A DNA stretch of 41,203 nucleotides. Source: Sanchytrium tribonematis. Its lineage: Eukaryota. Below are positions 4,552-40,123 of this stretch, piece after piece (the first letter of the stretch is position 1; every line of letters starts with the position of its first letter). The notes under the pieces are model-generated. The model had not been told where the DNA came from. It ran no database searches and was given only the letters and a program-made list of their open reading frames with translations. Made by a program: the position numbers and the translations under genes. Where the stretch lies: positions 1 through 41,203 of the forward strand of contig JADGIG010000024.1 of assembly GCA_018985235.1 (NCBI GenBank). Reading direction: 5' to 3'.

Positions 4552-7500
4552 TTATTGTGAGCAATCGCTAGCTACGAATCTTTCATCCTGGCATTCGACT
4601 TTACCAGATTTGATGACACAGACTGTTCCTGCAGGACAATCCCGGACCAACCATTTTCCTACGAGCGAGGTATCTTGGGATCGTTTCATGAACCTCATTA
4701 GCCATCTTTTTTGTGGAGTTTGAATACATTGACCATATGTGTTGGAGCTACTACAAACTTCTGCTTGCTCTAATGGATCACAAGCAGTTCCATCTGTAAC
4801 AGCTGAACACTTTGGTGCTGATGTTATTCCATAGTCACTTGATTCTTCAATGGCTACTTTTGGACATATTCTTGGAGGGTTACTTATCTGATTCAAGCTT
4901 AAGCAAGCCATTCCTTGTGGTTCAGGTTGAGGTACGCAGAATGTGCCAGCTGAACATGGTTGAACAGTCCATTTTCCTAAATAAATATAATCTACCATTA
5001 GAACAAATTGCAAAGTTGGTGCCGCTGCATTTGTATTCTCCTTCTTTATAACACTGAGATCCCTCGGGTATTTCATGAACACAATCCGATGGTGACGGAA
5101 TGCCGGTTTCATAGGATTGAGGAGATACAGAGTCAGTAAATAATTGAGTGTATGGTGCCCAAGTTTGAGTCGCAGTCCATAGCTCAGTAAATGATGTTTC
5201 CGAAGCTGTAGTTGTGGATGTGAAATGATCTGTGACAATTTCAATTGTAGAAGAAGAGTCAACAACGGATGAAAATGATGATATTGTTGTTGAATCAAAT
5301 GATGCGACTCCTAAAGTATCAGTCAGTACTTCAGTAGTGGTCGAGTCTCCTACAATGGTTTCGGTTGAAAAGACTGTCTCAGTAATGGTACATGTAACAG
5401 TTTCAGAGATAGTGCATACATTATTCTCAGTACTGAAACCAGAAGCATTTACAGTTTCCGTAGCAGTTGCAATTGCGGTGGTTTCAGGAGTTGGGTTTCC
5501 ATTTGGACATTGAACATTTGATGGATAATCGCAAGCAATTTGAAATAATGGATCTGAACGGCAAACAGTGCCCAAACCACAAGCCTTGTTGACCCATTTA
5601 CCATGGAAGCATTGAACAAATCCATCTCCAGAGCATTGATAGGTATCATCAATACAGTCGCCGCCATCAGCAACAATATCATGACAGGTGCCGACTTCAG
5701 AGACACCCACATCAGTAGCAGTGGCCTCTGGTGTGGCTGTTGTTTCAACAACACCAAAAGTAGACGTTGCATCACAAATTCTATTTTGGGGCCAATCGCA
5801 GACTATTTGAGATTTGCTATCTGGTCGACAAACTGTACCCAAAGCACAGTCTTTATTTACCCATTTGCCATGATCGCATTGCACAAATCCGTCACCACTA
5901 CATTCATAAGATCCTTCAACACATTCTCCACCATTCTCGATCTTTGGAGAGCAATCTGTGGAGGAAGAGCTGACAGGTTCACATGTGTTTACATTTTGAG
6001 GCCAATCGCAAGCAATTTTAAATGCAGCATCGGGTCTACATACTGTTCCTAAAGCACAATCTCTATTTATCCATTTTCCGTGGTCACATTGAACGAATCC
6101 ATGTCCACTGCATTTGTAGTCTCCTTCTACACAATCTTGTCCATCTGGAATAAATGGATTACAGCTTCCAGTTTCTACAACTGATGTAGTTTGTGGTGCG
6201 CTAGAACCGTCAGTTCCATCTGACACTTCCGAAACACCAACATTACCACCAGCTGGACAAGTTGCATTATAACTGCAAGTAGCGCCTGCACCTTCTACAC
6301 TTTCACAACTCAAGTCGGCACTACATTTTTCTCTAATCCATCCATTTGTACCACAAATTGCGAATTCTTTATCACTGACACAAATTGGAGTGTCTTTACC
6401 CCAGTCACAAATTGTACCATTTTGAATGTTCAAGTCTGATTTACATCCTTGACTAGGTGCCCATTCCAAAGGATTCGTCTTGTTAACAGGTGTCGCATCA
6501 ATAGCAGTATTATTGCAAGTATTTTCATTTGGAAGTCCACAAGTGATGCCATCTTTAATATATTGGCAAGCCAATCCGGCTGGACATTTTATAGCTGCAA
6601 ATGTATTACTTGGAGTACATTGTACAAAGTCTGATCCACTGCACAAATAAGTGTCTTTCTCAAAATCACAAGGTGAGTTATTAGGAATGATAGCGCAGGT
6701 GTCATTTGTACTGCTTTCTGATGCAGTTTCGGTAGAAATAGGCACAGCAACAGTCGTTTGAAATACTTCTGTTACAGTCGGTGAGATTTCAGTGTAAGTT
6801 GTATTTGGTGTGGAATATCCACAACTTGGAGCTCTTCCGCAAATAACTCCTGGTCCTTCATATGATTGACAATAAGTTCCATAACCACATTCTCTTACAA
6901 CGTATCCTTTACTGGTACATACTCCAAATTTAGTATCGTCGATACAAACAGGAGTGTCTTGAGAAGTTGAACATTGTGATCCAGTTGTTATGTTTGAATC
7001 ACACTCTCTGGCAGGCGCCCATTGCATTATATCTGATTTGTTAACAGCAGGGGTATTATCAACCCATGGGCAAGAATCTTCTTTAAGAAATCCACATTCA
7101 ATTTCAGTATCACTTAATTGGTTGCAAGCAGTACCAGCTCCACAAGGTCTCCATTTATATTTTCCATTTTGACATTGTACGAAATTTCTTCCACTACATT
7201 TATGTGTGTCGCCAGAGCAAGAAGTACCTTCAGGAATTTCAGTGCAATCTTGAGCTCTCTTTTCTAATGATCTCTTTGACAAGGTATGGGCTGTTGTTGG
7301 ACACATTGCTGCGTCAGTTGTGCATTCAATTTTAAATGGATTGCGTTGTTGGCAATTAGTTCCAGCTGCACAATCTTTCTTGATCCATACATTGTTGTCA
7401 CATTGGTAAAATCCCGAGTCAACACATCGATATTCACCAGCTTGACAGCCAATTTCCAAGTTTGAAACTGCAGGTAGACAAGAATCTGTAGAAATGCTGG

Positions 7501-8824
7501 TCTGTGGCAAATCAATGCTTGATACTCCAGGTCCAGAAGATGAAACTGGGCAAACGGGTCCTCTTCCAGGAAAATCGCATAAGAAGCTAAGTCCATTGTT
7601 GGTAGGTCTACACTCTGTTCCACTGGCACAGGAAGATATTTTCCACACATGTGTCGCTTGTCCATTAATTCTGTCTGGTACACATCTAATAAAATCAGTT
7701 CCATAACATCTGTCAAAATCTTGTCCGATTGTACATTCTTGACCTGGGGTGACCAATGGTGGACATCCATCAGGAACATCAGTTGGTGTGGAAACAGCAG
7801 TTGTCGTTTTAGAGACAGTCGATGTGGCTTTCTTTGTTGTAGTCACCTTTGTGGTTGTTGATGCCTTTTTTGTGGTGGTTGCCGCTTTGGTAGTTGTAGC
7901 AGCCTTGGTCGTCGTGACTTTAGTCGTTGTTGTGGCGACTTTGGTACTTGTAGGTGCTACAGTAGTGGTTGCAGCTTTAGTTGTAGTTGCAGCCTTTGTG
8001 GTGGTCAATATATTTGGATTGTTAACACAAATTTGTTTTGGATTTGACGCATCAGCAATTCCTTGCAGGTCACTGGCACACAAAGCTGGATTGACACTCA
8101 AGCTACAAGATACTCTAGGATCACAGTCATAGTTTACAGGTTGTTTTCCGATATCAATATCGACATTTGTTGCATCTTTTGAAGAAGGATCAGCATAACA
8201 AAAACTGCCGAATGCAGTTCCTTTCAAAATTGTATCAACGGCAGGTCCGCCACTTTTGACACAAGCAGGCACATTATTTAGAGGTACATTATTATTTTTA
8301 CAAGACTTTCCTGCATATGGTCCATCGGCCACGATCTCAATCAATGAGCAGCCGTAGTAAGCAGCAAAGGCGTTTCCTACTAATCCGTTCCACTGCAAAA
8401 CATATTTACCGGCTTTCAAATTCAGTGGAATTTTCACAGTCGTGTCATATCTTTCCAAGTCAGTTGATGATTGTTGGTAATCACACCCACCTCTAGCATT
8501 ACATGGATGAATACAGTCACCATAAGCGTATCTACCAGCACGTTCATCGATACCGTAACAGGCCAATTTAATTACATTTTGTTGAAAGGTCAACTCATTC
8601 ATTTGATCGAAAGGAGCCAAAGCCAATCTAACGTATCCACCACCGTGGTTATTGCTGGTCCATCCAACTTTTAAACGGTCTCCAGGACTCACTTTATTGG
8701 TTGGACTGTTTGCTGAAAATTGCTCGCAGCTTGGTTGTAAAATACCTCCTCTACTTGGGTTGGTATTGAAAGGTAAAGGGCAGGACATCCATGAGTGTCC
8801 AAATACAAATACATTGAGAAGCAT
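4552..8824 (-). CDS. secreted LPMO-like (histidine-brace) protein with Thr-rich linker and 11 eight-cysteine CBM19-like modules; 2 exons (8824-4996, 4976-4552), 1417 aa
   Basis: Hydrophobic N-terminus MLLNVFVFG followed by His10; NNH60GGG; GKYVLQW; YY157GC. Repeats of the form C..G.Y.CSG.GFVQC.HGKW...CA.GT.C resemble CBM19. Removing 4977-4995 joins CSNG|KWTVQPCSAGTFC and completes module 10. Confidence 0.8.
4977..4995 (-). other. 19-nt GT-AG spliceosomal intron
   Basis: GTAGATTATATTTATTTAG. Removal restores the repeat consensus C.NGKW....C.AGT.C. Confidence 0.92.
5507..6163 (-). repeat. three closely related tandem CBM19-like coding modules (modules 7-9)
   Basis: Shared core CSG.GFVQC.HGKW.N..C.LGTVCR.D...I.CD.P.N in three successive copies. 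Confidence 0.85.
7781..8005 (-). repeat. low-complexity (TTTKAA/TTTKV)n linker coding repeat
   Basis: Translation TTTKAATTTKAATTTVAPTSTKVATTTTKV..., typical of a fungal O-glycosylated linker. Confidence 0.85.
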
Positions 8825-8859
8825 TCTGCGTTTTACTTTTAAAATCAGAGTTCAACTAT

Positions 8860-8917
8860 TTATACCCAAACGTCAAGGTCATTTATACGTGTGCCAAGAT
8901 TAAATTATACCCAAACG
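8860..8917 (-). promoter_or_regulatory. duplicated 13-bp promoter motif CGTTTGGGTATAA upstream of the LPMO-like gene
   Basis: TTATACCCAAACG occurs exactly at 8860-8872 and 8905-8917, 36-93 nt upstream of the ATG, and contains TATAA on the sense strand. Confidence 0.4.
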
Positions 8918-9498
8918 GGGAGGACGTCAAACTGTTTCAACCAAAAGAACTTTTTATTTTGGTGTAATCAATATGTGAAATGAATCTATGATGGTACAGA
9001 ATTACATTTTTGGTATCTCTACCATGACCTAAAGGTTACTCCGGCCTATCCTTAATATTGTTTCATGTGACGCCCCAAAACCTTCAGGTTTTTCAAACTT
9101 AAAAGTAATAACTCCAAACCGAAGTGGAGTAGCTTGAACAATTTCAATTTAAGTTTATTTTTAAAGAAAACTGCTAAAAAAGAATGAGGTTATCATATTG
9201 GATAGTTTTACAATAAATTACTTGACACATATATCAGAGTTTGAAATCAGAGCAGCTTCAAATCTGATGAATTTTAAATATAGATTTGTTCAAGCAATTA
9301 CTCCTGCAAAAATGTACGAAGTAATTTGACCCATGTTTCATGAATCACTCTCCAAGAAAACAATACCCAATATTAAAGTGGCATGGAACACAATAATCAA
9401 AGATGGAATTAGAGTCGATTCGTAACTTGGTTTTGAAATACTCTATCGGATCATCACGAGCTGCTGCGACAGTGTAAGTAAATTTAGTAAGAGTTTTA

Positions 9499-11019
9499 TT
9501 AAATTCTACGAAACGTGATAGTCTCCACACACGTGAATTTTTTTCGAAACTCTGTGCAACTATTCACTCTGATTTGATTTTTTTGAAATGATAAGAGATT
9601 AGTGTAACCATACTCTCTCGGTCCAACCCTTTCTGATTTAGCTGTATCACCGCGCACAAGAGGTTCCATTTGAATATTTACTTCGTCAAAAGTATGAGTA
9701 TTGCGATGATAATTGATTACTCTTTTCCATTTGGTATCATCCATACAAGCAGGTAGAGCATTACACGCTACTCGATATACATAAATATAAGCACATCCAC
9801 TTCTATTTACCGCACGGAATAACCTTTTCAATACCCAATCAATTGCCTGTTCTTGGGTCTCATTGAGATAAATACCAGCACCAGAATCATGCCCGGAAAG
9901 ATCAAATTTACGAGTAGTTGGCATTCCGTCAGTGTCAAACCTACCACCATTAGATTCTGTGGAATGATATACTAACATACACCCAATTTCTTCGAATTTA
10001 TTCACAAGTTCAGAAAATTGTTTAACATATGGACTTTGATCCGTCGGAATTTTACCACCGCGAACTTGAATTTCAGATGTCTTGGTTCTACTGGGAGTGC
10101 TTGTGTTTTCATTAGTACTTTTTACAATGTCACTAAAACTCATCTGGAGGCGTTCCCCATAAAATTCATATGCAGAAAGTGTATGGTTTGTTGGGTACTC
10201 TGCTTCATATTCTAAATCTTTAAGGACTGCGTTCACAATATCGTTGCTAATGCCAAGCAGCTCGGAATCGTGTTCATTGGGGCCATCCTCTTGCTTCAAA
10301 TACTTGATGTACTCAACCACAGTATCAAAAAGGGAATTATGTAACTGTGGATCATAGGATTGACTTATTTGGTTACTTGCATCATGATTAAAGCCAATCG
10401 TTTTCAATATCTGAACCTCCTGAGAATAGTATTCCTCGGAAGCTTCCCAAATTTTGTTAAATTCCGCGTGAATATCATCTATGTTTTGTTTATAAAACTG
10501 CTCAGAAGTGGTTGATTCCTCTCCTGTCTTCAACAGAGTCAAGGGAGATTTTGAACTTGGTCTTCCAAACTGAAAATGCTCAACGACGATAATATTCTCG
10601 AATATATAAAGTCCTCGATAAAATGCAAATGGAAACAATCTTGTTTCTCCGTTGATCTTATGCAATTTTTCGAATTGGCTTTCGATTTCCGACGGCTCAA
10701 AATTTGGTCGATGCGCCTTGAAAAGTGAGCCATATGGGTCTGCAACAACTACTTTTGCCTTCTTCAACAACTCTGGGTTCAGATAATTTAATGTTGGCGC
10801 AGCAATTTTCACTTCATCAGAGCTTTGTTGGCAGCAATAATCAAGCAAGACCTCTAGACTAATGTTCTGAATATGAGTGATTAAACTAGATTTTGGAGTA
10901 TTTTTGAAGAAATTTTCAAGTGGTTGGTCTGCTGGAATTACCATTTTACCAAGATCTGGTATTTCAAAATAGTTGGGAGAGATGTTTGTCATTGAAGGAG
11001 AGAAAAAAATCAAAAACAT
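9499..11019 (-). CDS. fusion protein: PLD-superfamily (DUF5919-like) domain plus DUF3990-like ADP-ribosyltransferase-fold domain (506 aa)
   Basis: N-part (aa ~55-195): VVVADP, ETRLF, LYIFENIIVVEHFQFG, SP, EFNKIWEAS. C-part (aa ~347-506): VYHST, DSGAGIYL, QAIDW, YIYVY, W..VI..HR, VRG, NQI. Confidence 0.6.
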   Translation of the reverse strand: MFLIFFSPSMTNISPNYFEIPDLGKMVIPADQPLENFFKNTPKSSLITHIQNISLEVLLDYCCQQSSDEVKIAAPTLNYLNPELLKKAKVVVADPYGSLFKAHRPNFEPSEIESQFEKLHKINGETRLFPFAFYRGLYIFENIIVVEHFQFGRPSSKSPLTLLKTGEESTTSEQFYKQNIDDIHAEFNKIWEASEEYYSQEVQILKTIGFNHDASNQISQSYDPQLHNSLFDTVVEYIKYLKQEDGPNEHDSELLGISNDIVNAVLKDLEYEAEYPTNHTLSAYEFYGERLQMSFSDIVKSTNENTSTPSRTKTSEIQVRGGKIPTDQSPYVKQFSELVNKFEEIGCMLVYHSTESNGGRFDTDGMPTTRKFDLSGHDSGAGIYLNETQEQAIDWVLKRLFRAVNRSGCAYIYVYRVACNALPACMDDTKWKRVINYHRNTHTFDEVNIQMEPLVRGDTAKSERVGPREYGYTNLLSFQKNQIRVNSCTEFRKKFTCVETITFRRI

Positions 11020-12120
11020 GGGAGATCTTTGATCATGCGCAACACAAAGCGAATTTGAGGCCCAAACTTGGTATATTCCCTTGGTTCTTCATCTTTCCAA
11101 TTTTAAAAATATTACCGTCGCATCTAGGCCCTTTAAAGCAAGACATTTGATATATATCATTACTAATTAATTCAGGTTAATTCCTTCTATATCCCTCAAT
11201 TGTATTCTTCAGGGTGTCTGTAGTAGATTTAAATTCGTAATAATCTGGATCCTTTACGGGATCAATATGAAGCCAATAGCTGAATACAACTCCGAAGTTC
11301 TTGTTTTACGCCTAAAGCCCCTATCAATTGCGAATGCATAATCAAAGATTTCATGTTCTAAATTATAGTGATTCTCTTCTCTTATCTCCAAATCAGAATA
11401 AATGACAAACTTCCACAAATCCAAATATTTTTATGATCAGGACAATATAATTTTTAATTTCCTTCCTATATACCAGACATTATAGGATGTTTCTCATGTG
11501 TGCAATACAAAGTTCCTTTAATACAATTTATTGTGTTTAAAAGAAAGTATAGCTATGGAACTTTAAGTCTATAATGACCACACAGTCAACCGGTCCTTTG
11601 ATCCAAATTTTCAGTTGGCTTGGGTTATTCATATTTCCATTATTAATTGCTTTGCAACTGTTTCCAAAATACTCCTCTTCTCTTTAGCTTCAGCTTTAAA
11701 CTTTGTAAATAAATGTCAAATCCTAGGGAAAGTTCTAACTGTGTGATTTTTTTTTACCGAAATTTTAGTTGAATGGATCTCTTCGAGTTTGATGTCAACA
11801 GAACTAAGGTATGCGGAAGATCCGACGCCTTGGGGTCTTAAAGATAATTAAATTGTGTAACTTTTAAATAATCCAGCATTATGTAAAAGCATTTTGATTT
11901 TCTTATTTGTTGTGATGAAGACTTAAAAAACTCTTTAATCGTTTGAGCAATTTAGGCGTGAGTAATTCGAAATAAATTAATAAATGTTGCAATTGATAAA
12001 ATTGTGACAAATATGCATTACAACATCAAATTCTGTAGCTTTAATATGTGAAGTACGCGTTCATTTATGTGAGTATTGACAAAATAGTTGTTGCCAAAGT
12101 GCTCCCCCCGAAACTAGATA

Positions 12121-15264: not shown

Positions 15265-15293
15265 ACGTTATAGGAATGGGACGAGTTTATTAA

Positions 15294-15843
15294 TTATTCT
15301 TGATCGTTGTTTGAGCCTCCATTGCTGCCAAGCTTGAGAGCTCTAATAAATTCTTTGTAATTATATCGATTTAACGGGTCTGCTGGAGTTCCTTTGAAAA
15401 ACGCCTCCACCTAAATAAATTAATAATACCTCTTCTTCCGTCATTCTATCACCATAATTCAAAAGCCAATCTCTTAGCTCATCCATATCACAAAAGCCGG
15501 TTCTTCTGTCATCAAAATATTCAAAAGCTTGAATCAATTCATGTTCAGCATCAGTTCCGTTCATTCTTTCACCAAATAATGTTAAAAAAATTGTAAAATT
15601 GATACTTCCAGGTGCGTCTTGTAACATTTCTTCAATATAGGCATCATTTTGACTTTGTGCTGTTTGGCCTAAGCTAGCCAACATATCTTTCAAGTCTTCT
15701 TTGTCAATAAACCCATCTTGATCATGATCGATCATGCTGAAGGCTTCCTTAAATTCTCCGATTTGTTTTTGGTCGAACATAGCGAATATGTTGGAATTTT
15801 GACGAGCGGCTCTTCTTTTGACTTTCTTTCTGGTAGCAGACAT
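15294..15843 (-). CDS. myosin II regulatory light chain; 2 exons (15843-15430, 15410-15294), 176 aa
   Basis: RQNSNIFAMFDQKQIGEFKEAFSMIDHDQDGFIDKEDLKDMLASLG. After splicing the C-terminus reads MTEEE|VEAFFKGTPADPLNRYNYKEFIRALKLG, the expected fourth EF-hand region. Confidence 0.93.
15411..15429 (-). other. 19-nt GT-AG spliceosomal intron
   Basis: GTATTATTAATTTATTTAG. Removal restores the conserved RLC C-terminus. Confidence 0.93.
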
Positions 15844-16279
15844 GAAGACGTCGGTTTCACAATTCGAGAGTTAAATTTACAACTCTGAAATTTTTGAAGA
15901 AATACAAATGAGCAGTAGGTCTTAATAAACCCAGTTTATTCAAATATTACTATTATTGCGAAATTTAACGATCTGCTCCCGAATTTTATATTTAACTGGG
16001 CAGCTCTGAATTTATTGAGTAACACTTTAGTTCAATAAAAAATTTAAGCTTACAGACCATATTAAATTGCGGCTAACACATACGCCTAATCCTAAGTCAA
16101 TTTCCTATTTTAGTGGCTCTTCTAGGTTTTGATAAATTTTAAAATGAGTAATCCCATAGTTATTCGTTGAAATTCAAGAGAAATATAAAGAATTTGATTT
16201 CGTCAAAAGTGTCGAAATATTGCAGGCAATGCCTAAGTGAAAGCCAGTTGTCGAAGTTGGATGATTTCAAACACGGAAA

Positions 16280-17101: not shown

Positions 17102-17157
17102 TTTTAATAATGCTCAGATTTTCAAATTAAGCAGGCCAACTATTTAATTGAAGTAAT

Positions 17158-18150
17158 TTATTTTAAATTTAACGCATCATTAAAATCGTGACGAAGTTCT
17201 TCTGCAGCATGGAGAGCTGATAAACAAGCGCCTTCAATTTTCGAGTCACCGAAGCCATCTCCTGCTAAAATCAATGTCTTGGGACCATTTGAATAATGAT
17301 ACGTCGACTTTTTAAATGTGTTTTTTGGCTGAGAATAGTCCCATCTTAATACCTTGGCCTTTGATAAAGACAAATCCGATAGTGCCTCGATAGATTTCCA
17401 TTCAGAGTTTACTTTATCGATGATGTCGCGATCGGATTTTTTGAAATAGGCTTCGCTGAACTCTTTGCCACAATGAATGGTGATAATTTCTTTATCAGTA
17501 ATACCTTTAGTGTGATTATTAGCAACGAAGTCAATGACCGATCCTTTATGTTGATATGCTCCGTTCTCTCCAATTTTAAATTTGTCGTCCAACTCCATAA
17601 TAAGAGTGACGCAAGGCCAGTATTTCACTTCAGCTAATTTTTCAAAATCAGCTTTTGGAATAATATCCTCCACAAGCTTTAAAGACTTAGGCAATGGGGC
17701 GGTCAACACAACGTGGTCGGCCTTCATGATGCCCTTATTAGTATGCAATATAAATTCGTTTTCCGACTCTTCAATCGTATTAACCTGAGTCTTGTACTTG
17801 ATTTTTAAATTTTCGCAAAGATCATCAACTAGATTCCCCATGCCATCAACTGCGCAATAACGCGGATAATTGTCATTTTTTGGAGGAAAACCCTCACTCC
17901 ACACTTTCACTAGATTTTGAGACTTCCATTCTTGAACAAGTTTGCCAAATTCATCAGTACGGACCGTAAAAAATTGAGCGCCAGTGTCTGCTTCGTTTGT
18001 TTCTGTTCTTCCATGTCCATGCTCTGTTTGTTCGAGCACGATAGATTCGATTTCAGATTCTTTCAATTTGTTGGCGATAATTGAACCGGTGATTCCGCTC
18101 CCAATTATAACGTTTGATACCATTTTGCAACTACGCTGGAGAAGTGTCAT
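17158..18150 (-). CDS. renalase-like FAD/NAD(P)-dependent oxidoreductase (alternative ATG at 18123)
   Basis: IIGSGITG Rossmann motif; DTGAQFFTVR; GM..L...L; VVLTAPLP; RWDYSQP; LAGDGF...IEGA.LS. Confidence 0.85.
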   Translation of the reverse strand: MTLLQRSCKMVSNVIIGSGITGSIIANKLKESEIESIVLEQTEHGHGRTETNEADTGAQFFTVRTDEFGKLVQEWKSQNLVKVWSEGFPPKNDNYPRYCAVDGMGNLVDDLCENLKIKYKTQVNTIEESENEFILHTNKGIMKADHVVLTAPLPKSLKLVEDIIPKADFEKLAEVKYWPCVTLIMELDDKFKIGENGAYQHKGSVIDFVANNHTKGITDKEIITIHCGKEFSEAYFKKSDRDIIDKVNSEWKSIEALSDLSLSKAKVLRWDYSQPKNTFKKSTYHYSNGPKTLILAGDGFGDSKIEGACLSALHAAEELRHDFNDALNLK

Positions 18151-18630
18151 TCTTATTCAAAATCTAATTTTTAGAGCCCCCTTGAGCAGATAAGTACTAA
18201 CTTTTTGTTGTAAGATGTGCAAGAGTTCCAAGATGTAGGTGATTCCTCATATTCATCAATATGGGACACGCTCTGTGCAATTGAGTCGATTCATTAAAGG
18301 AAAAGATCCTATTGATATTCGAGCACTTAAAATTTTAAATGAATTCTTGGCAAATTAAAGGGACAACAAACTGTATTTTCGCTCATTGTTTTTGTTTATT
18401 GTGCTAGAATTTAATGTGTCGAAGTGCAAATGCTGTTAGATTGTGCTTTAATCACATGCATTGGCAAGATGATGCGTTGCAAGTCTTTTTTAGCCTAGAT
18501 GATTAAAATTAGGTTAAATTAGTCTTTACATTTGAATGAAGATTTAAAACGATTCGATTGGTCAGCATGCATATTTAGTTTAGTTTTTATATTTGGATTG
18601 CTATATAAAATTTTCGACTCTTTCTAGTTA

Positions 18631-18704
18631 TTAGATTTGATGTCCCATATGAGGTTTCGGAGTCAGCTTTTACATTTGATGTCCCACATGATTTTTAGGA
18701 GTTA
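18631..18704. repeat. imperfect direct repeat, 35-nt unit at 39-nt period
   Basis: TTAGATTTGATGTCCCATATGAGGTTTCGGAGTCA versus TTACATTTGATGTCCCACATGATTTTTAGGAGTTA (29/35 identical). Confidence 0.8.
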
Positions 18705-18780
18705 AACTGATTAACTTTTCACCAATCTGACTTGTGGACGACTCCTTTAAAAAGGAACGGCATAAAAATAAACGTGACTG

Positions 18781-19026
18781 ATGGACATTAGACTAACTGG
18801 TAAAAGGGTTCGTGAAATAGTAGAAATCTTAAAAGCTGGAGAGGATCCTGAATTGGCAGAAGATTTTAATAATTTGGTTGTTAATTTGTTACCAAGTTGT
18901 CTAATTCATGTAACTGATTTCTTTCAAATACCTACCTATGGAATAGCTAGTGATGATGTTGTTTATGTAACAAGAGGGCTTAAGGATGATGATAAAAGAT
19001 TGATAAAATCCAAACTGTTTAAATAA
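18781..19026 (+). CDS. small hypothetical protein (81 aa)
   Basis: ATG-TAA ORF with globular-protein composition; the stop lies within AATAAA like neighbouring genes. Confidence 0.55.
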   Translation: MDIRLTGKRVREIVEILKAGEDPELAEDFNNLVVNLLPSCLIHVTDFFQIPTYGIASDDVVYVTRGLKDDDKRLIKSKLFK

Positions 19027-20171
19027 ACATTGTAAATTCTAACAATAGTATTTTTCGAGTCTTAGTTCCAATATGCTAGTCTTGCATTCAATATGAGCAT
19101 GAAAAACACCAACAATAAGGTGATATAAATTCTCTTTCTCTAATAGTTTCAACCGTCCAACATTCATAGGATCATTGGACACCTGGACCGCTCAAATTCA
19201 GGTGAAATCCAAATATATTTGTCTAAAAACTTGACATATTTTATTCTCTTCAAACCCAAAGCTCTGACTAAAAATAATTTGATCCAAAATCAGCGTATTG
19301 CTTCACATTAGTTGTTATTCTTATTACGTCTCTAAATTCTGTATCATCTTTTTAAAAATCAGTCTGTTACCAATTAAATTTAGTATTTTGATATCAACAA
19401 TTCCTGTTAATTGTACAATAAATTTCAAGTCGTCTTTTCTGAAGCAATCACTGGCAAGTGGTAAATATTCAGTTCAGTCACACCCAATCTTTTAGCAACC
19501 TATCACAAAGTGTTTCCGTGGAAACTCAGATGCTTCCGCATTCATATTTAAAGATTTATCTTACAATCTAATGTTAACACAGATTTAGATTTGTCGCATA
19601 TAATGACGTTTAAATAAAATTTGTTCGTGTGAAAGTACTTGAGAGTTATATGAATTTGAAACAATTACATTACAGTATAATTTTATTAATTTAATCCGAA
19701 ACTGCCGATCCTAGTTTAGTTATTTTAGTTTCTTCAAGCAACCCTCGTCTAGATTCATTAGTGTAAATGTCGTCAAAACTTTAAATTTTTACAAAAAACA
19801 AGATTTAATCCGAGTCTAGTTTCCACAGGGCGTGTCCTTTTATGTTAAGATAGTTTGGAATGATTCCTAACTTATCATTTCATGAATTAGAAAAGAATTT
19901 CTGGATTGCCTGCAAAACTCAGGTGAAATTTGCATCGCTCATTCAATTTGTAATTCTAATTCTTAAAAATTTATTGAGAAATTTGTATTCAATTATCTGG
20001 CTCTGATAAATCTAACGATACAAAGCGACTTGGGCCTAATCGATTATTACCACAATAAAAGATTTAATTTTTTTGAAACATACAATAGTACATAATTAAT
20101 ATGTTTAAGTATAACATGATTGCCAGAATGGTAAGGGTTAAGATCATGCATAGACGTAAGCAGCCTGAAAC

Positions 20172-20306
20172 ATGGGCCATTCACCTAAAGTCCAAGTAGT
20201 ACGTTTAAAATGTGAAAAATGCGGTGGAACAGGTGTACGACAAGGCGGAGCATGCAGTAACTGTAAAGGTCATGGGACTATAATTAAGCACGAGCGGCGA
20301 GGTTGA
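20172..20306 (+). CDS. 44-aa stand-alone DnaJ-type zinc-finger microprotein
   Basis: MGHSPKVQVVRLKCEKCGGTGVRQGGACSNCKGHGTIIKHERRG* has two CxxCxGxG motifs; locally higher GC; AATAAA begins 5 nt after the stop. Below the ORF-track length cutoff. Confidence 0.75.
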   Translation: MGHSPKVQVVRLKCEKCGGTGVRQGGACSNCKGHGTIIKHERRG

Positions 20307-21119: not shown

Positions 21120-24100
21120 ATGTCAAAGAAAGAAGTTAAAAAGTTTCATTGGAAGCCAAAATTTTTAACTGTTGTTGCAGTAGCAGAGTTCGCACCTGTT
21201 CAAGTTGATTTGTCAGCCTATCCAGAAACCGAAAAGCTCAGCTCAAATAGATTCCATCCTCGGGATCAAGTCGAGCTCCATGTTGGTGATATAGCTTCAA
21301 TTCTTGAAGAACTGAGTGGTTGGTACCGTGGCTATGTGTTTTCTCCCAGCAATCCACAACTAAAAGCTCGCCTAGGAATATTTCCCGCCAATCATACATC
21401 TTCAATTCGCAAGAGAGAATATAAGGACTCATCTCAAAAAGATAAGCCAATTCTACCTAGTTCAGACGATATTCAATCCCCTGTCGATGTGAGACAAGAG
21501 CCAGATGAAGTCTTGGCGCATGATGAAGTGCAATTGAGTGTCAAAAAATCGACTTCCATTGTTGCAGATTTTTTGAATGCTAATACTACGGACGCTGTAA
21601 GACCTGATGGAACATTAATGAAAGTAAGAAAAGCAGGTAGTAATCCTTTGCCTGATGCCAGTATGCCTTTTTACATCACAAAATATGCAAGGGAAGATCC
21701 TTTGATTGACGAAGTTACTGTAGTCTTAAGGGATTGGTTTTTTAATTTGAAAACGTGCTTGAGATCTCAAGATTACAAGTCCTATGCATTGACCAAAAAG
21801 AATGTGAATAATTTGCTAAGAGGAAGAAGACAATTGTTGGCCAGAAAACATGTCGGTCAAGGGTTGAGCTCCGTTAGACAGGAAATTTTGCAAAGTATTT
21901 CAGATGGAAATGAAATGCAAAAGTATCATCAAGTCATTAGAGACAAAGAGACTGGTGAAGTGTTTACACCCAGACTTGCGACTGTCATGAAAATGCACCA
22001 AACCCATACACATTTACAGTGGCATGTCAATCCTGATAGTAAAAAGCAACAACCACGATCTTTTGATGTTTTTGATCAGGAATATTTGCAAAAGGAAGAA
22101 ACTCATGTCCAGTTTCATCACTTTTACTTTGAGATTAAAGAAAATCAGATTCAATTAGCAACGGATGGGCCTTATGAAATTCATTTTAATATTTTGACCA
22201 AAAGTGATGGACAGCCATTGTGTGAAACATTTATTGTGAAATACGACCAAAACAAGGCGTTGAATCCTATTCAGTATCTTGTTACAAATCTAGCACCGGT
22301 TGATGCTTCATTGGACACCATTTTACTTGGCAAAATTTTTAAACGTGAACAATTTAGTGACAAGTGCGCGGAAACTGTTGTCCGAAGACCGGTGGGCATC
22401 GTTTTGATAGAAACAAAGGATATTTTTAATGGTAAGGAAGCTCAACCAACCAATGGATTTTTTATGAAGTTGTTTCCTGTCAGTAATGAAAATAACTTTG
22501 GAAAATTTTACGAGAAAATTTTGGAGACAGGATTATCCGCTGACTATGGTCCAAAAGCAGGGGGTTTGTTCGTGGTTTTGAAAACAGCAGTAGGTGATTT
22601 GGATTACGTTTTGAAAAGTACGCCATTTTTCGAACCAAAAAACACCATCTTGGTAAATAGAATTAATTTTCCAACTGTAATTACTCCCACAATTGCTCGA
22701 AATAAGGTTCATATTACATTGAGGAGTGGTGATTTTCAAAGAAGTGTATCAAGAAATATTGAAATTGCAATTCAGTTACGAAATAATTACACTGGGCAAG
22801 TTATTGATCAATCAATGAGTGTTGGTAGAGGTGTGAATAATTCTGCTGTTTATGAGAGTTCACTTCATTATCATGCACTGAGTCCAAATTACAATGAGAC
22901 TTTCACTGTTGACTGTCCTTTAGATATTTTGACTGATTCACACTTGTATTTTGCTATCAGAGCTTTACATAGCTCTGACAAAGAACGAAAAGAGACCAAG
23001 GTGATTTCGTTTGGATTTTTACCAATCATGAAAGACAATAGAATGATAGCAAATGGAGTGAAAGATTTAGCTGTATATAAATACGAAAAATCTAAAACTA
23101 GCCCAGGTACTTATTTAACCCTTCCTTTCGAAATTCAGGAAGAAAAGGAAAAGCAAGACACTTTATCAGTTTATGTGAATCTTTGTAGTTCTAAGTACCC
23201 ACAAAATACTAATCTATTTCAATTTTTAAATTGGAAAAAGATTCCAGATTCTACTGCAGACACGTTTAAGCCGATGTTGGGAGAACTGAAATCTGTCAAA
23301 GAAAGCGAAATACTTTTTGCTCTATTTGATATTTTGGAGGGTTTATTTGAATTACAAAAGAGTGCTAAGAATGAAAATTTAGTTCTTGACCAACTAATTT
23401 TTCAAGGTTTATTGCATTGTATAGGACTCACTCAAGACAACAAATATTCAAAATTTGAGCCAAATGTGAGAAAGTTTATAGAGGAAAAATTCAACTATGC
23501 TTTGGCGTATAAATTCTTACTTCATAATTTAATCAAACTCATTGATGAAAACAGCACTGCTGGTAATTTACAATATGTGAAAGAAGTCCGAGCCACCTTT
23601 AAGATTGTTCACTACATTTTCATGATGATTTTTAAAAGTAGAGCCCTTCAACAGGAAAAAGAGAAAAAACAAGACGAATCACCATTTGAAGCCAATGAAC
23701 AATTGTTCAAAGAAGACATCAATAAGTTTGTAAATAGTATTTGTACGGTGATGCATGAGGTCAGCAACGACACCGTATTGGGAACTCAAACTACAATCCT
23801 TCAGTACTTGGACAGAATTATCATCGAATTTTTAAAGTATTTTGGGCCGGTCGCTACAGCTGATTACACAATCCAGATGGCTGACGCAGTTCAAAACAAG
23901 AAATCCACTGTTATAAACTACAAATTAGTATTTATGATGAATATTGTTAAATCACCTTTGTTCAAGACCAAACAAGCTCGCCCAATTTTAAGTCAAGCCA
24001 TTGCGAGATGGCTAACAAATTCATTTTTAGACCCTGGTTCTGGTGATAAAAATGGAAGGAAAGATGTATTTCGTAAATCTGTGTTTGTATTAGCAGAAAC

Positions 24101-26784
24101 GTTGGATTGTATGCAAAATGTACTAGAAGTCAACGCGCATTTACACTCTCAAGATTTAGACACTGATTTCAAATCACTCCAAATCTTTGCCAAAATTGTG
24201 CCAACTTTGATTGATGTTTTTGATGATTCTTTAAGCAGCAGTGATGTTCAGACAAAGTTCCAAACTAAAACAAATCATAACGCGACTTCATTTCATTCCT
24301 CAATAACTGCTCAACAGACCTCAACAATTTTAAGTATTCCACAATCCGGGCCTTCATCCCCAATTTCTATGAATGCACAAAATCCATCTATTTTGAGTGG
24401 TGTCATTGCTGCAACTATGTTGATCATCTTTCATTTGTTGAGCAAACAAGAACTTTTAAATGTCTTTTTTGAAGAATTGAGTCATTACAATATTGAAAAA
24501 AGCCAAAGATTGATCAAGTTAATGATTAACAGTGTGAACTCTATGGTGATCGGTGAAGCTTTTCCAGATGAATGGGCAAATTTAACTTTGTTTACCAACA
24601 AGACAGCCCTTAAAATGTTTGAAGTTATATCAATGATTACACTTGGCAAATTTAGTCACCGGTATGGTCACCAATTCGACAAAGCCATTTGGGTGTCATT
24701 ATTAAAAGGTATATTGAATTTGCTTCAAAATCATAATTTTAATACCAGAAAAGAATCTCAACAATTTAAAAGAGTAGAAATGATCTTGGAGGCAAACATT
24801 GAAGTGAAAGGTGCTCAATTCTTGAAAGCGCTCTGGGACTCTATTGGTGTCGATGACAATGGAAATGATATTTTGAACTATCATTTGCAATTAACTAATG
24901 ATTTGATGAGCAGTGTCTGCCAATTATCAGTGAGTAACAATTCGACTTGTCAACAAGTGGCAAGTTATATCATTTTCAACATGATGAGAAGAGAATATCA
25001 ATTCTGTAAATCGGTGCATCGTATCGAAACAATGGTCATTGACGAATTAGATAAGCTATTTAGCATTGGTATGGGTGATGAAACTTATCAGAAAAATTTG
25101 ATTTACAACTTGAAAACATACAACAAATATATTCAAGTAGATGATCAATTTAGAGATATTACTGACAAAGTCATTTCTAATTTTGATCAATTCTGTAATT
25201 TGGTGCTTAGTGTGAGAAGTCTAAGCAGCTTTGGAGATGAGTATGAAGACGAAAGATGGGATGGAATCTTAAAATTGGCATTTTTCATGAAAACGGTCAA
25301 CAAACAAGAAATTTACATCAAATATGTCCATCATTTGTCTCAAATGCAATTGAAGAAGAACAATTTTGTAGAAGCTGGACTTACACTTATGAATCATGCC
25401 AATATCTTGGAATGGAATTTGAATACATCTGTTCCTGCTATGGAAGACATTGGGTTTCCTAAAGAGCAGTCTAGTTATGATAGAAAGGAAGAATTACTGC
25501 TTACCATTTTGGAATACTTTGATGAGGGAAAAGCCTGGGAAAAGGGTATCTCAATTTGTAAAGATATGAGTGCTCAGTATCAAAATTTATCTTTTGATTA
25601 TAAAAAATTAAGTGGAATGCTTAAAAGAGAAGCGGATTTGTATCTGAGTATTTTGAACAAAGAGCGATATCATTCTGAATACTTTAGAGTTGGATTTTTT
25701 GGAAAAGCTTGGCCTGTCAACATTCGAAACAAATTATTTATCTACAGAGGATTTGAATTTGAAAAAATTTCAGTGTTTTGTGAGCGAATTATCAATAAGC
25801 ATGCCGGAGCGATGATGTTGAAAAATAATAATGCGCCAACAGAAGAAGTACTTAATAGTAACAAAAAGCATATTCAGATAACTGCTGTTGTTGCAGAACC
25901 AAAGCCGTTATCTATTTTCACAAGCGATAAGGTTCCAGATGTGGTTAAAAACTATTTCGTTAGTAATGAAATTGAAAACTTTTCATTTCAACGACCATTT
26001 AGAAAGGCGGCCAAAACTGGAAATGAATTTTTAGACCTGTGGACAGAGAAAACTGTTTACAGAACAGCTGAAGTTTTTCCACATGCTTTAAGAAGAAGTT
26101 TGATAGTTGACTATGAAAAGTTTGAGTATTCTCCAGTCGAAAATGCTCTAAAAACAATGTCTGGTAAGAATGCCGAACTTTTGGCATTGGAGGCTCAATT
26201 TAGTCAAAAAGATGCTGCCAAGCTCAACTGCAATCCATTAACTATGAGTTTGAATGGTAGTGTTGATGCTCCTGTCAACGGAGGGGTACCGATGTACAAG
26301 AAAGCTTTTCTTAACGATGAATTCAAGAGCAAGTTTCCAGACAAGGCTGAATTTGTTCCACAATTGGCTGATGCAATTGACGAGCAGATTATTATCATCT
26401 CTCGTTGTTTGGACGTTCATGCTAAAGTGGTTCCACCAGCCATGCGTCCATTGCACGAAAACTTGGTCAGATGTATTTTTTTATAATTTAGTATTCTTGA
26501 AGAACTATAGTGAAGATATTGATAGACTCGGAATCCCGCCGCCAACAACCGAGGCTCCTGCTCCATTGTTGTCGCTGCCAAAGAAAGAAGAAGAAACAGC
26601 GTCTGTAATGAGCAAGGATAGTGGCGAACATCCTCTTCCAATGAAAGAAATGGAAAAGGGAGCGACATTGAGAATTAAGAAAGGAAACACTGAGAGAGGA
26701 AGTTCAATGGTGTTGAATGAAGGAGTAACAGCCAAAGACAGATTATTAAGTAAGGCTTTTGGAAAGAAAGAAAAGCCTTCCTAA
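21120..26784 (+). CDS. DOCK-family (DOCK180-like) Rho/Rac GEF with SH3, C2/DHR1 and DHR2; 2 exons (21120-26472, 26492-26784), 1881 aa
   Basis: SH3 (GWYRG...GIFPANH); DHR2 (EYFRVGFFG, FIYRG, LNGSVDAPVNGG..MY). The spliced junction reads PLHENLVRL|FLKNYSEDI. Confidence 0.93.
26473..26491 (+). other. 19-nt GT-AG spliceosomal intron
   Basis: GTATTTTTTTATAATTTAG contains the in-frame TAA that ends the ORF-track entry. Confidence 0.88.
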
Positions 26785-26917
26785 TAAAGTTATTAACTTG
26801 TATCACTTTTTATTTACAGGATACAATTATTTATCTACATGGTATACTGACATTTTAAGTCGTTTTTTGATTGGTGAATGAAATTCAAGATAAGGTTTAA
26901 GTTAGTAACGTAAATAT

Positions 26918-30220: not shown

Positions 30221-30570
30221 CAAGATGTGAAACAGGGAAATTTCAAGGTCTTTAATGTCATCATGATTGCACGATCATTTTGGTTGGACCAAACTATCCT
30301 GAAAATATATTGTGTACAACAGAGATTTCATTCAAGCAAAATAGAATATAAAACTACTTTGAGGTATCTTCTGAATTTGAGAATTGCTATGATGAAGATG
30401 TTTGATGAGTAACTTATGGAGAGATAAGAGAATGTCTTAAGCTTTACTAGCATTACATGCCAAAAAGGAAGTTTGTTGATTGTATGTATTTCCTCAAGAG
30501 TGGGAAAAAGAGTTTGGATTTTTTGGTCTTTTGGTAACATAATATTTAAAAAGTGTCGAGCAGACCTAAT

Positions 30571-31179
30571 TTACTTCTTCGATTTAATTTTCTTCAAATA
30601 AAATTCTAGTTCTTTGCCTTCTAAAATATAACCGTCAGCTCTACCGCTTTGGCCAGGACGTGAGGCGATACGAGCGTAGATTCTGCCAGCACCAAATTGA
30701 TCAACCAAACCAGATTCAACGGCGGATTCCTTTTGTCTCTCAGTCAGTTTAGATTCAACCTTCTTCGATTTTTTCTTTTGTAATTCTTCTGACGATTTTA
30801 CACCATCTTTTCTTCCAAGTGGTAATCCATAATGTGCCTCATACCATTGTCTTAGGGGAGTAGGGTCAATTTGAATGATGCCACCTTTGGTAAGTGTATT
30901 TGTTCTCACTAATTCGTTGTTGCTTGGATTATATACGACATTTAAAATACGTGTTTTCCTGGTAACAGATTCAGATCCCCAAGAGAAATTACCAGTGTCG
31001 AGTCTTAGTGCTCTGAATTTTAAATTACCACCACGTACTCTGACGGTATGGACTCTTTTGTGTCCAATTTTAGTTGAAGCTGGCTGTCTTCCCAACTCAA
31101 ACTTTCGCTTTTTACGATATTGAGCACGCTTTGCTCCAGTAGCTGCTCTCTTGTGTCTTGAGTCTCTGGAAATTCCCAT
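30571..31179 (-). CDS. RPS8: 40S ribosomal protein S8 (eS8)
   Basis: [13 protein letters not shown]...[32 protein letters not shown]. Intronless. Confidence 0.98.
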
Positions 31180-31350
31180 TCAATATTGCATTCTGGTAAA
31201 TGTATTTTCACAATTCACGTGAAATTCGCTCCTTCAAATTGAAACAAATCTCCGAAAATTTACTTATCTTATGAAACATTTTCACTTGAGTTTAAGCTCA
31301 TATTTGCTTCGTAGACTATATTTTATTTAAAAATAGAGCACTAAGAGGCC

Positions 31351-34008: not shown

Positions 34009-34187
34009 ATAAAATTTTTGGTTTCAGTCGCTCCTGATACAAAATCATACTCAATTACAGGATGATTTATCGAAAATACTTGATTTTCTGCTTGCGTAAT
34101 CCACAAAACATTCTGAAAAACGTTTTAATTTGACAAAATTGCCAATGATGCAATAAATGACGAAAGCAAAGTTGACTAGAGAACTCC

Positions 34188-37169: not shown

Positions 37170-37208
37170 ATTTAGTAGGCTTTGCAGAGTGCCCCTTGTT
37201 TATTGTAA

Positions 37209-38628
37209 ATGCAGATCCCCTTTGTGCGCCGTTTGAATTTGATGACCCGTGCTATGCTGCAAACTTCTTTAAAGAACAGCGACCCAACACTTTACAATCT
37301 TATCAAAAAAGAAGAAGACCGACAATTTAGCTGTTTGGAATTGATTGCTTCTGAAAATTTCACTAGTCAGGCTGTTATGGAAGCAAATGGTAGTTGTTTG
37401 ACTAACAAATACAGCGAAGGACTTCCAAATCATAGATACTATGGTGGAAATGAATTTGTTGATCAAATAGAAGAGCTCTGTATTTCTAGAGCTCTCAAAG
37501 CATTTCGCTTGAAAGAGTCTGAATGGGCTGTGAATGTCCAACCATATAGTGGTAGTCCTGCTAATTTTGCAGCATTTACAGCTGTCTTAAAACCTCATGA
37601 TCGTATAATGGGCTTGGATCTTCCAAGTGGAGGACATTTGACCCATGGATTTCAAACATTAAAGAAAAGAATAAGTGCATCTAGTATTTACTTCGAAAGC
37701 ATGCCTTATCAAGTCGACGAAGAAACTGGGCTTATTGATTATGAACAGTTGCGCAAAAATGCATTATTGTTTAAGCCTAAACTTATTATTTGTGGTGCAA
37801 GTGCATACCCCAGAGACTTTGACTATCAAAAACTAAGAGAAATAGCCAACAGTGTCAATGCACTTTTAATGTGTGATATGGCTCATTTCAGTGGTCTTGT
37901 TGCTTCGCAAGAACTGACAAACCCATTTGATTATTGTGATTTGATTACAACAACAACTCATAAAACTTTAAGAGGGCCTAGAGCAGGTATGATATTTTGT
38001 AAAAAAGGAATTCAAATTGATGGCGAGGCTGCTCACGATCGAGTCAACCAAGCGGTTTTTCCAGCTTGTCAGGGTGGCCCGCATAACCACGCAATTGCAG
38101 GTGTGGCTACTGCTCTCCTGCAGGTAGATTCTGACGAATTCAAAGAATATTCAAGACAGGTCAAAGCTAACGCCAGCGCACTGGCTGAAAAGCTCAAGTC
38201 ATTTGGATACAAGTTGGTTACTAATGGTACTGAAAATCACTTGGTGCTTTGGGATTTGAGACCTAGCGGAATTACTGGTAGTAAAATGGAAAAGATATGC
38301 GATGCAGTAAGGTACATTTGATTGACTTAGTATAACGTTAAACAAAAACTCTGTTCATGGTGATAAGTCAGCTATGAACCCTGGAGGTGTAAGAATCGGT
38401 TCCCCAGCTTTAACAAGCAGACAGTTTAAAATTTCTGATTTTGAGAAGGTGGCACAATTTCTTCACGAAGCATGTCAATTGACCATCAAAATTCAAACTG
38501 AATGTGGAAGTAAGAAGCTGGTCGATTTTGTAACTGCTATTAAAAATTATCCTGAAGTGGATGAGCTAAAAGCAAAAGTCGAGCAATTTGCTCGATCATT
38601 TCCAATGCCAGGGGTCTCACTTGAGTAA
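37209..38628 (+). CDS. SHMT: serine hydroxymethyltransferase; 2 exons (37209-38311, 38331-38628), 466 aa
   Basis: [25 protein letters not shown]. The spliced junction reads [28 protein letters not shown], matching the conserved sequence. Confidence 0.97.
38312..38330 (+). other. 19-nt GT-AG spliceosomal intron
   Basis: GTACATTTGATTGACTTAG, with a TTGAC branch-like motif. Removal restores the conserved I.LNKN motif. Confidence 0.95.
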
Positions 38629-38640
38629 ATTTTTATTGAA

Positions 38641-40123
38641 TCAGCTATGGTTTTTAAACATATCAATGGCTTTTTGACGTACCTGGGAATGGTCAACCAT
38701 AGGAGGGAAATATCCTAAATTTTCTAATTGCGAAGGGGAATAATATTTCCAAGGTTCGTGAATTTCTTTTCTCTTTAAAGCGGCGAGTTCCGGGCAATGT
38801 TCTTTAATAAATTTCCCATCCGGATCAAATCTAGAGCTTTGACTAGATGGATTAAAAATCCTAAAATATGGCTGTGAGTCTGTCCCCGTAGAAGCACTCC
38901 ATTGCCTGAATTAAATTTTGATACCATCCTCCATTATTTGAAGCCAGATTGCCATCAATCAAATGGCACATAAAGTGCTCCTCACCCTTCCTCCAGTCAA
39001 TTAATAAATCCTTAACTAAAAAGCTGCTGACCACCATTCTCAGTCGATTATGCATCCATCCCGTTTTCAATAATTGTCTCATTGCAGCATCCACAATAGG
39101 AAAGCCAGTTTTTCCTTCTTTCCATTTCTCAAAGTCCTCCTCGTCTTCATTCCAAGGAAGACTTTTATATATTTTTTTAAATGGAAGGCTCTTGCAAACA
39201 TGAGGAAATGAGACCAAAATATGATTATAAAAGTCTCTCCAACATAACTCATTGATCCAAGTTACTATACCCTCATTACCAGAATCAAATTGGTTAGAGT
39301 TCTTCGCTAAAGCCAAAGCTAAACATGTTCGAGCACTTAAAATGCCACCTGATAGGTAGTGGCTTAGTCTACTAGTTCCATCTTTATAAGGAAAATCACG
39401 ATCACTTTTGTAACGGGAAATTCTTGATTGTACAAAACTCAAAAGATTTTGAAAAGCTTTATCTTCACCTGGCTCATAATCTTTAGAAGAGACGTCAAAC
39501 CCAGGAATACTTGGTACAATTTCTGAATACTCCTTCATAAAGATTTTGTTCGGACTTGGATCTTTGACTACTTCAATGTATTTCGGGTTTTCTCCAATGA
39601 CTTTAAACCATCGTTTCTTGAATGGTGTGAAAACGGTCGACGTTTTCCCACTACTCTTTGCTATAACTGAATTTGGAGGACATATACAAAAGTCGTCGAA
39701 ATCATGAAATTCAACCTCGATTAAAGACAAAGCTTCCTTGGATTTTCTATCTCTCACAATTTCGTCGACCTCATATTCTTTATTGCAAAACACAGCTGCT
39801 ACCTGTAATTCTTCGCATATTTTCGTCAACTCAGATGGAATGTCTTCGAATTTATCCACAGTTCTAACCAATAGTGGAATTTTTAATCCCTTCAGGTTTT
39901 TCTGCAGATCCTTAAGGCAATTAAGCCAAAAATCAATTTTTATAGGTGCTTCACTGTGTTGCTTCCATTCCAAAGGTGTGGCGAAATAAATTGTCAACAA
40001 ATCTCCATTTTTTGCAAATTGCGATGCTTCATACAACGCAGTGTTATCTTTTAATCGTAAATCCCGCCTGAACCAGTGAAGAGCACGACCATCTAACTTC
40101 GACGATAGTTTGACTTTTTTCAT
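38641..40123 (-). CDS. PHR1: class I CPD DNA photolyase; 2 exons (40123-38925, 38905-38641), 487 aa
   Basis: HWFRRDLRL.DN; TSRLS.YL; ELCWRDFY; GWMHNRLRM. After splicing: SNNGGW|QWSASTGTDSQPYFRIFNP...FDPDG.FI. Confidence 0.95.
38906..38924 (-). other. 19-nt GT-AG spliceosomal intron
   Basis: GTATCAAAATTTAATTCAG. Removal restores the conserved NNGGWQWSAS motif. Confidence 0.96.

Follow-up and report, generated by a model that had tools for sequence, protein, structure and literature searches.

Probable 19-nucleotide spliceosomal introns with a putative fused branch and 3' splice signal in the sanchytrid fungus Sanchytrium tribonematis

The 41,203-nucleotide contig JADGIG010000024.1 of Sanchytrium tribonematis (assembly GCA_018985235.1), analysed here over its full length and referred to below as the window, contains five segments of exactly 19 nucleotides (nt), each of which begins with GT, ends with AG and interrupts a protein-coding gene. 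From comparison of these genes with their homologues, we regard it as very likely that the five segments are real introns. We propose that they are probably ordinary U2-type spliceosomal introns of a sanchytrid fungus, shrunk nearly to the minimum that the spliceosome allows, with the branch point and 3' splice site fused into one signal.

Results

The segments are located at 4977..4995 on the minus strand, in the last cysteine repeat of a protein with CBM19-type repeats (phase 1, likely branch A at 4982); at 15411..15429 on the minus strand, in the gene for a myosin regulatory light chain (RLC; phase 0, likely branch A at 15416); at 26473..26491 on the plus strand, in the gene for a DOCK-family exchange factor (phase 1, likely branch A at 26486); at 38312..38330 on the plus strand, in the gene for serine hydroxymethyltransferase (SHMT; phase 2, likely branch A at 38325); and at 38906..38924 on the minus strand, in the gene for a DNA photolyase (phase 2, likely branch A at 38911). 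An original prediction, made from the letters of the window, had reported five 19-nt GT..AG segments with a common motif, and we confirmed them at these coordinates and strands. All five start with GTA, end with YAG and share T12, A14, Y15, T16 and Y17, which places a T at −8 and an A at −6 counted from the 3' end. The pattern GTA-N8-TNAYTYAG occurred exactly five times in the window (0.33 expected), each time at one of the segments; as it was derived from these same introns, the count shows only the absence of stray matches. When the same ends were sought at other lengths from 14 to 30 nt, there were 0 to 2 matches per length, compared with the 5 at 19 nt. Permutation of the 15 inner letters of each intron in 200,000 rounds yielded at least four invariant inner columns in about 0.4% of the shuffles and an A at −6 in all five introns in 0.39%. 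The segments were covered gap-free, with no letter changed, in contigs of the sole listed DNA run; this run may be the source of the assembly, and the coverage therefore excludes an assembly slip only and is not independent support. We also scanned the window for further frame-joining introns of 14–45 nt and judged the 121 candidates by eye; apart from the five loci, none brought parts of a recognisable gene together, in a scan that could miss in-frame introns of 3n length in genes with no close relative and introns in untranslated regions.

To locate the junctions, we enumerated for each locus every frame-restoring (3n+1) GT/GC..AG cut within 30 nt of the donor. At all five loci the sole cut that restored a gap-free homologue register was the 19-nt cut; cuts of 24 nt in SHMT and 25 nt in RLC were rejected, as they gave the wrong frame or lost two conserved residues. 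The prediction that removal of each segment restores a conserved motif or repeat thus held for all five genes, each of which regained both its frame and its homologous register. In the CBM19-repeat gene, removal restored the C-x-G-x2-F-x2-C-x2-G-K-W-x4-C register of the other repeats in the same open reading frame. The predicted RLC exon 2 reads VEAFFKGTPADPLNRYNYKEFIRALK, in residue-for-residue register with the fungal RLC tails VDIMFKGAPVDAKNNFNYRDWVRVLK. The spliced photolyase junction, NNGGWQWSASTGTDSQPYF, is letter-identical to a close relative that lacks the segment (P0246), and a DOCK homologue (P0365, 74%) is continuous across the predicted junction, reading RPLHENLVKLFLKNYGEDI where the window has RPLHENLVRLFLKNYSEDI. 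P0246 and P0365 are proteins without the segment and could stem from intron-free genes or from transcripts. For SHMT, the three closest relatives (P0003–P0005) all stop at the site of the window's intron. More generally, public gene calls for these loci end inside or just past the segments; the public sanchytrid proteins were called by TransDecoder on contigs, with no intron model (PMC8371127).

All five introns lie toward the 3' ends of their genes. The host genes are those for a 1,400-residue protein with CBM19-type carbohydrate-binding repeats (4552..8824, minus strand; Pfam PF03427), in which the intron stands at 0.90 of the coding length; the RLC (15294..15843, minus strand; 176 residues when spliced, assigned by homologue search and tree), at 0.78; the DOCK-family guanine nucleotide exchange factor (21120..26784, plus strand; Pfam DOCK_N, DOCK-C2 and DHR-2), at 0.95; SHMT (37209..38628, plus strand; 466 residues when spliced, homologue search), at 0.79; and the DNA photolyase (38641..40123, minus strand; 487 residues when spliced, homologue search and alignment), at 0.82. 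The introns thus occupy the last 22% of the coding length (0.78–0.95), 117–425 nt before the stop codon; were introns spread uniformly, this would have a nominal probability of 5e-4, for a threshold that was picked after the fact. Their density was 5 in 16 gene-sized frames, or 0.15 per kb of coding sequence, and retention of any of them would stop translation within 3–24 codons. The RLC, DOCK, photolyase and SHMT proteins align with those of relatives from their very beginning, and the match of XPG to its Pfam model begins at position 1, so that 5' coding introns are unlikely to have been overlooked in these genes. In the CBM gene, a 5' intron that would lengthen its short leader was sought by eye and none was found. 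This large, cysteine-rich protein has an N-terminal domain with a His after a 9-residue hydrophobic leader, a layout that may resemble that of a lytic polysaccharide monooxygenase. SHMT and photolyase are convergent neighbours only 12 nt apart (37209–40123), and for P0003 and P0246, their closest environmental relatives, the longest contig listed is 28,760 nt in both cases, which suggests that this gene order is conserved.

The nearest named relative of the window is Amoeboradix gromovi, with 79% identity in SHMT and 91% in RLC. In an RLC tree of 47 rows built by a quick method, the window, A. gromovi and two environmental proteins formed a clade with 100% SH-aLRT support, which fell inside an open group (92%) with Blastocladiomycota. 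The G+C content of the window, 35.7%, compares with about 35% published for sanchytrids, which are algal parasites with genomes of 10–11 Mb and are sister to Blastocladiomycota (PMC8371127). P0003, P0004, P0246 and P0365 were placed among the sanchytrids by identity alone.

As public gene calls run on into the intron, their tails can be back-translated to an intron length. The A. gromovi RLC tail, VVFFYLGRSIF, fits a 19-nt intron with an A at −6 and five correct downstream residues; provided that the stop is TAG, a 19-nt intron with T at −8 and A at −6 also accounts for its SHMT tail, RYYSII. The A at −6 was forced in both deduced introns. For the RLC of the environmental proteins P0242 and P0244, the sole solution within the tail was 21 nt long, again with T at −8 and A at −6, and needs a TAG stop; otherwise a longer intron must be assumed. 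P0243, P0003 and P0004 end before a length can be deduced. Solutions that depended on TAG and offered no residue beyond the intron to check, such as 10 nt for SHMT or 15 nt for P0165, were considered uninformative in themselves and were not counted, and those for A. gromovi SHMT and P0242 were kept as conditional only. Among more distant fungi, P0146, a chytrid-like RLC with 84% identity to Boothiomyces (from a JGI metagenome with a longest contig of 36,643 nt), implies an in-frame intron of 21 nt with an A at −6 and also, where the window has its RLC intron, one of 20 nt; it possibly stems from a further lineage of fungi in which ultrashort introns arose independently. The introns deduced from P0235 and P0184 would be 31 and 33 nt long, the former with an A at −6. 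Further sanchytrid DNA was not recovered: a degenerate RLC motif matched 0 stretches in metagenome contigs, an RLC search of genome and viral contigs returned nothing, none of the 80 loci kept from an RLC alignment scan of 27 of the 64 parts of the metagenome collection was sanchytrid, and the 8 loci from an RPS8 search were all unrelated.

Homologues of the RLC and DOCK genes bear on the age of the intron positions. Of 119 RLC homologues examined, 98 non-sanchytrid ones had the motif and 22 of these left the register at the intron codon, by a count made by eye. At the same position, GT-AG introns of 116, 96 and 103 nt were present in metagenome loci L007, L023 and L029, the only ones counted among the 80, which were at most 66% identical; L002 breaks at the site too, and calmodulin loci were set aside. 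Of 150 DOCK homologues examined, 54 carried the motif, and 9 of them have a Cys at the split codon (T|GT) and then leave the register; 2 more end at the split codon, one of them a partial Piromyces model. Judged from these alignments, the RLC and DOCK intron positions are shared with introns of other fungi or animals, and the RLC position is old. The SHMT position was shared among sanchytrids only; the homologue lists for SHMT and photolyase consist of full-length models and thus are uninformative about an ancestral position.

Information on the splicing machinery came from the eggNOG annotation published for A. gromovi (supplement file 4 of PMC8371127), a table of 3,755 rows in which just half of the proteome is annotated. 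We looked there for 30 spliceosomal factors, and 26 were present. They included Prp8, U2AF1, U2AF2, SF1, SF3B1, U1-70K, U1A/U2B'', Luc7 and Prp40; Brr2, Snu114, Prp16 and Prp22 (one row carries both numbers) and Dbr1; and Isy1, Prp17, Cwc25, Yju2, Cwc22, Cef1, Syf1, Clf1, RBM22, SNW1, PLRG1 and Bud31, with most of the NineTeen complex covered. UPF1 was annotated as well. By this annotation, the proteins of the major spliceosome are encoded in the lineage. Slu7, Prp18, U1C and Prp19 were absent from the annotation by number or name; as Prp19 is unlisted, the table misses genes. Searches by yeast gene name missed six factors later found by their KEGG numbers, so that name searches give false negatives. 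The original prediction had suggested that the spliceosome is reduced; with 26 of the 30 factors listed, U1 proteins among them, a general reduction is unsupported, and so is one of the microsporidian or mikrocytid type, with loss of the U1 particle and most associated proteins. In yeast, step II does not need Slu7, Prp18 or Prp22 when the branch-to-3'-site distance is less than 7 nt (PMC3392075), and neither Slu7 nor Prp18 appears in the available part of the Stentor table, as in the A. gromovi annotation. The annotation weakly hints at a possible selective loss of Slu7 and Prp18, which would be shared with Stentor. An Rfam search of the window yielded no small nuclear RNA, the U2 gene included (one chance match), and no tRNA was found there.

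Other features of the window

Two stretches of the window appear to vary within the sample. The element at 18264–19837, about 1.57 kb long, has terminal inverted repeats of 14–17 nt and an 82-residue frame inside, and its terminal sequence recurs as a loose end at 30310 in contigs of the DNA run; we interpret it as a probable small DNA transposon, polymorphic among the sampled DNA. The 2.8 kb at 9056–11867 had about one third of the flanking depth and were skipped by one contig of the DNA run. They hold a frame of 497–529 residues on the minus strand with a sub-threshold DUF3990 match; the 497-residue version had no match in the ESM Atlas, and no clear terminal repeats were found around the stretch, which we interpret as a polymorphic insertion. 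An intron-free gene for an FAD-dependent oxidoreductase of the amine oxidase fold (17158–18156, minus strand) gives the impression of being bacterial, and horizontal transfer is possible. At 20169–20306 (plus strand), in an otherwise gene-poor 3-kb gap, a 45-residue frame with a sub-threshold match to the DnaJ zinc finger would be a small gene or a fragment.

Discussion

We propose the following scheme for the recognition of these introns. The 5' end would be recognised from GTA. UnAy is the branch-point context, and T12-N-A14-Y15, with its invariant A at −6, matches it; U2 small nuclear RNA would pair weakly with this U-rich stretch, leaving A14 bulged. Branching at A14 would produce a lariat loop of 14 nt and a tail of 5 nt. 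The 3' AG, five bases past the branch A, would then form one fused signal with the branch site, with no separate pyrimidine tract. Deletion bias would have worn the spacer between the 5' site and the branch down to a steric floor of 13 nt before the A, hence the narrow length, with no need for a special ruler; deletion bias against a minimal-length threshold has been proposed for Mikrocytos mackini (PMC10245619). The machine itself would be a largely complete major spliceosome that may have lost the step-II factors Slu7 and Prp18. Frame and homologue register, the intron positions shared with other organisms and the sanchytrid grouping of the window all favour the claim of the original prediction that these are spliceosomal-type introns in a fungus-like genome. 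Its choice of A14 as the branch point is likely correct, since this A fits UnAy, is forced in A. gromovi and occupies the place of the putative branch A of Stentor. Of its fixed length, the 19 nt hold for all five introns of the window and do not extend to the whole phylum, as the P0242/P0244 RLC intron must have another length.

Several observations weigh against this proposal, in whole or in part. Splicing, its junctions and the branch point are deduced from DNA and protein sequence, and the material comprises five introns as DNA and two deduced from protein tails. As the introns are 68–89% A+T, part of their common motif is a matter of composition. Pairing with the U2 register GUAGUA amounts to 3–5 of 6 pairs, wobbles included, and is weak. 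The photolyase and DOCK introns are each missing in one close relative, and the evidence for ancestral positions comes from RLC and DOCK, not from SHMT, photolyase or CBM. For the A. gromovi RLC, a 23-nt solution passes a looser test in which 4 residues are checked; the 19-nt length of the A. gromovi SHMT intron is conditional on a TAG stop; and the P0242/P0244 tail, VIIEFI, admits no 19-nt intron. The unlisted Slu7 and Prp18 may also simply have been missed, because Prp19 and U1C are unlisted as well.

The most serious alternative, though an unlikely one, is that the intron is defined by its length and not by the branch/3' motif, with a reduced spliceosome that counts off a set 19 nt starting at the 5' site; the original prediction had favoured such a length-measuring machine. 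The constancy of 19 nt in all five introns of the window and both deduced A. gromovi introns would fit this idea, as would the absence of Slu7, Prp18, U1C and Prp19 from the A. gromovi annotation and the combination, in mikrocytids, of introns of 16–17 nt with a spliceosome of 17–19 proteins (PMC10245619). It is at odds with the annotation of 26 of the 30 factors, with the retention of a core spliceosome in heterotrichs despite their 15-nt introns (PMC13685798), and with the introns that are not 19 nt long: the 21-nt solution for P0242/P0244 keeps its T at −8 and A at −6, and the A at −6 recurs in the deduced introns of 21 and 31 nt of unrelated fungi (P0146 and P0235). In Stentor coeruleus the putative branch A likewise shifts from position 10 to 11 as length goes from 15 to 16 nt (PMC9505925). 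Because the A stays at −6 across deduced introns of 19, 21 and 31 nt while the length varies, the 3' site is better explained as anchored to the branch than as measured from the 5' end.

Less probable still is that the introns are real and poorly spliced, as in microsporidia, with their 3' position and early stop acting as a regulatory or 3'-end-coupled switch. Microsporidian introns of about 25 nt are spliced less than 20% on average (PMC6349667) and the 16-nt introns of Mikrocytos 63% (PMC10245619); in the window, retention would halt translation soon after each intron, and UPF1 is annotated in A. gromovi. However, SHMT, photolyase and RLC would lose conserved C-terminal parts on retention, and conservation is seen in the second exons, so that useful splicing must occur. 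Such a switch would in any case be compatible with branch-anchored minimal introns and would merely add a function to them. That the segments are not introns at all, being instead insertions that shift the frame of decaying genes, errors of assembly or amplification, or ribosomal bypass sites, is very improbable: public gene calls do stop inside or just after them, though these were made with no intron model, and the GT-AG ends, equal length and inner motif shared by all five, their presence in raw-data contigs, the breaks of relatives at the same codons, the two positions that hold normal introns elsewhere and the conserved second exons all argue otherwise.

Ultrashort introns with a fused branch/3' signal, in a class below about 22 nt, are known from other eukaryotes, and the five introns of the window and the two deduced from A. 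gromovi match them in length class and in their A at −6. The closest likeness is to heterotrich ciliates. Their introns also begin with GTA and have an A+T-rich body, T at −8, a putative branch A at −6, nearly the same last eight bases (TTATWTAG), a narrow length range and a density of about 0.3 introns per gene; the 15-nt introns of Blepharisma undulans follow the motif GTAAWWTTTATWTAG (PMC13685798), and two introns of the window end in TTATTTAG, their last eight bases being the same as in that motif. Weak U2 pairing has been proposed for the U-rich branch region of Stentor too (PMC9505925). The two systems differ in that heterotrich introns are 15 nt (3n) with a 10-nt lariat loop, whereas those of sanchytrids are 19 nt (3n+1) with a predicted loop of 14 nt, and in that Stentor and Blepharisma introns are biased toward the 5' end and those of Fabrea salina enriched at the 3' end (PMC13685798), the window's introns being at the 3' ends of genes. 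Since a sanchytrid is a fungus, the sanchytrid introns would be independent of those of heterotrichs; the convergent origin put forward in the original prediction, independent of both ciliates and nucleomorphs, remains the simplest reading.

Other systems are less similar. Mikrocytos mackini is likewise a parasite with very short, uniform introns (16–17 nt) of conserved motif, but mikrocytids have a strongly reduced spliceosome, with 17–19 proteins and only U2, U4 and U6 identified, in contrast to the many factors annotated in A. gromovi, and, in the available account, no introns in metabolic genes such as the sanchytrid SHMT (PMC10245619). Chlorarachniophyte nucleomorph introns belong to the same length class (18–21 nt; cited in PMC10245619), but in an endosymbiont nucleus with over 800 introns in about 300 genes, compared with 5 per 16 frames here. 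Microsporidia (about 25 nt in Encephalitozoon cuniculi) and Rozella (about 30 nt) are, like sanchytrids, parasites with compact genomes, and in the literature examined they have the shortest introns on record among fungi and related groups. Their introns are longer than 19 nt, and those of microsporidia, unlike the ones described here, lie at the very 5' end of genes that mostly encode ribosomal proteins, and accompany a reduced spliceosome (PMC6349667). Sanchytrids, moreover, branch with Blastocladiomycota and not with microsporidia or Rozella (PMC8371127). Myxobolids and dicyemids (medians of 22–27 nt) are also opisthokont parasites with a 5' signal reduced to GTa, retained U2AF and ancestral positions, but their introns are longer and variable, with no fixed A at −6 and with weak As that drift away from the AG as length grows (PMC13644364). 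The myxobolid median is 22 nt, and Trichomonas introns are 23–25 nt.

The sanchytrid introns, at 19 nt, are shorter than the typical fungal and animal introns described in the literature examined, and they are apparently an unreported member of the known ultrashort class. We found no report of sanchytrid introns in the literature searched, although a mention in the supplement of the genome paper is possible; in its main text 'intron' occurs only in a reference title and 'splic' does not occur (PMC8371127). The available part of a survey of fungal introns gives no comparably short length (PMC8476143). As a tentative and broader proposal, which we consider somewhat less likely to be right than wrong, sanchytrids would have the shortest typical introns of fungi and animals, with 19 nt as the length throughout the genomes of two or more species and with nearly all introns at the 3' ends of genes, and would have converged with heterotrichs on the T−8/A−6 signal and on the loss of Slu7 and Prp18 with an otherwise near-complete spliceosome.

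If this were true, it would suggest that minimal introns are generally reached by one route, in which the branch and 3' site become fused, the factors bridging the two are dropped and the loop then shrinks to a lineage-specific floor. The sanchytrid introns add an apparently unreported case in which ultrashort introns arose independently, here in a phylum of fungi with a sister group of ordinary gene structure, and the ancestral positions make it possible to set long introns beside their 19-nt counterparts. Two questions become testable in public genomes: what sets the minimum length, the loop being 10 nt in ciliates and 14 nt here with an identical 3' end, and whether loss of Slu7 and Prp18 can be predicted from a branch A at −6. 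Finally, because the public sanchytrid proteomes were called with no introns, SHMT, photolyase, DOCK and the myosin light chain are truncated in them, and this may have consequences for gene presence/absence and phylogenomic data sets with sanchytrids among their taxa.

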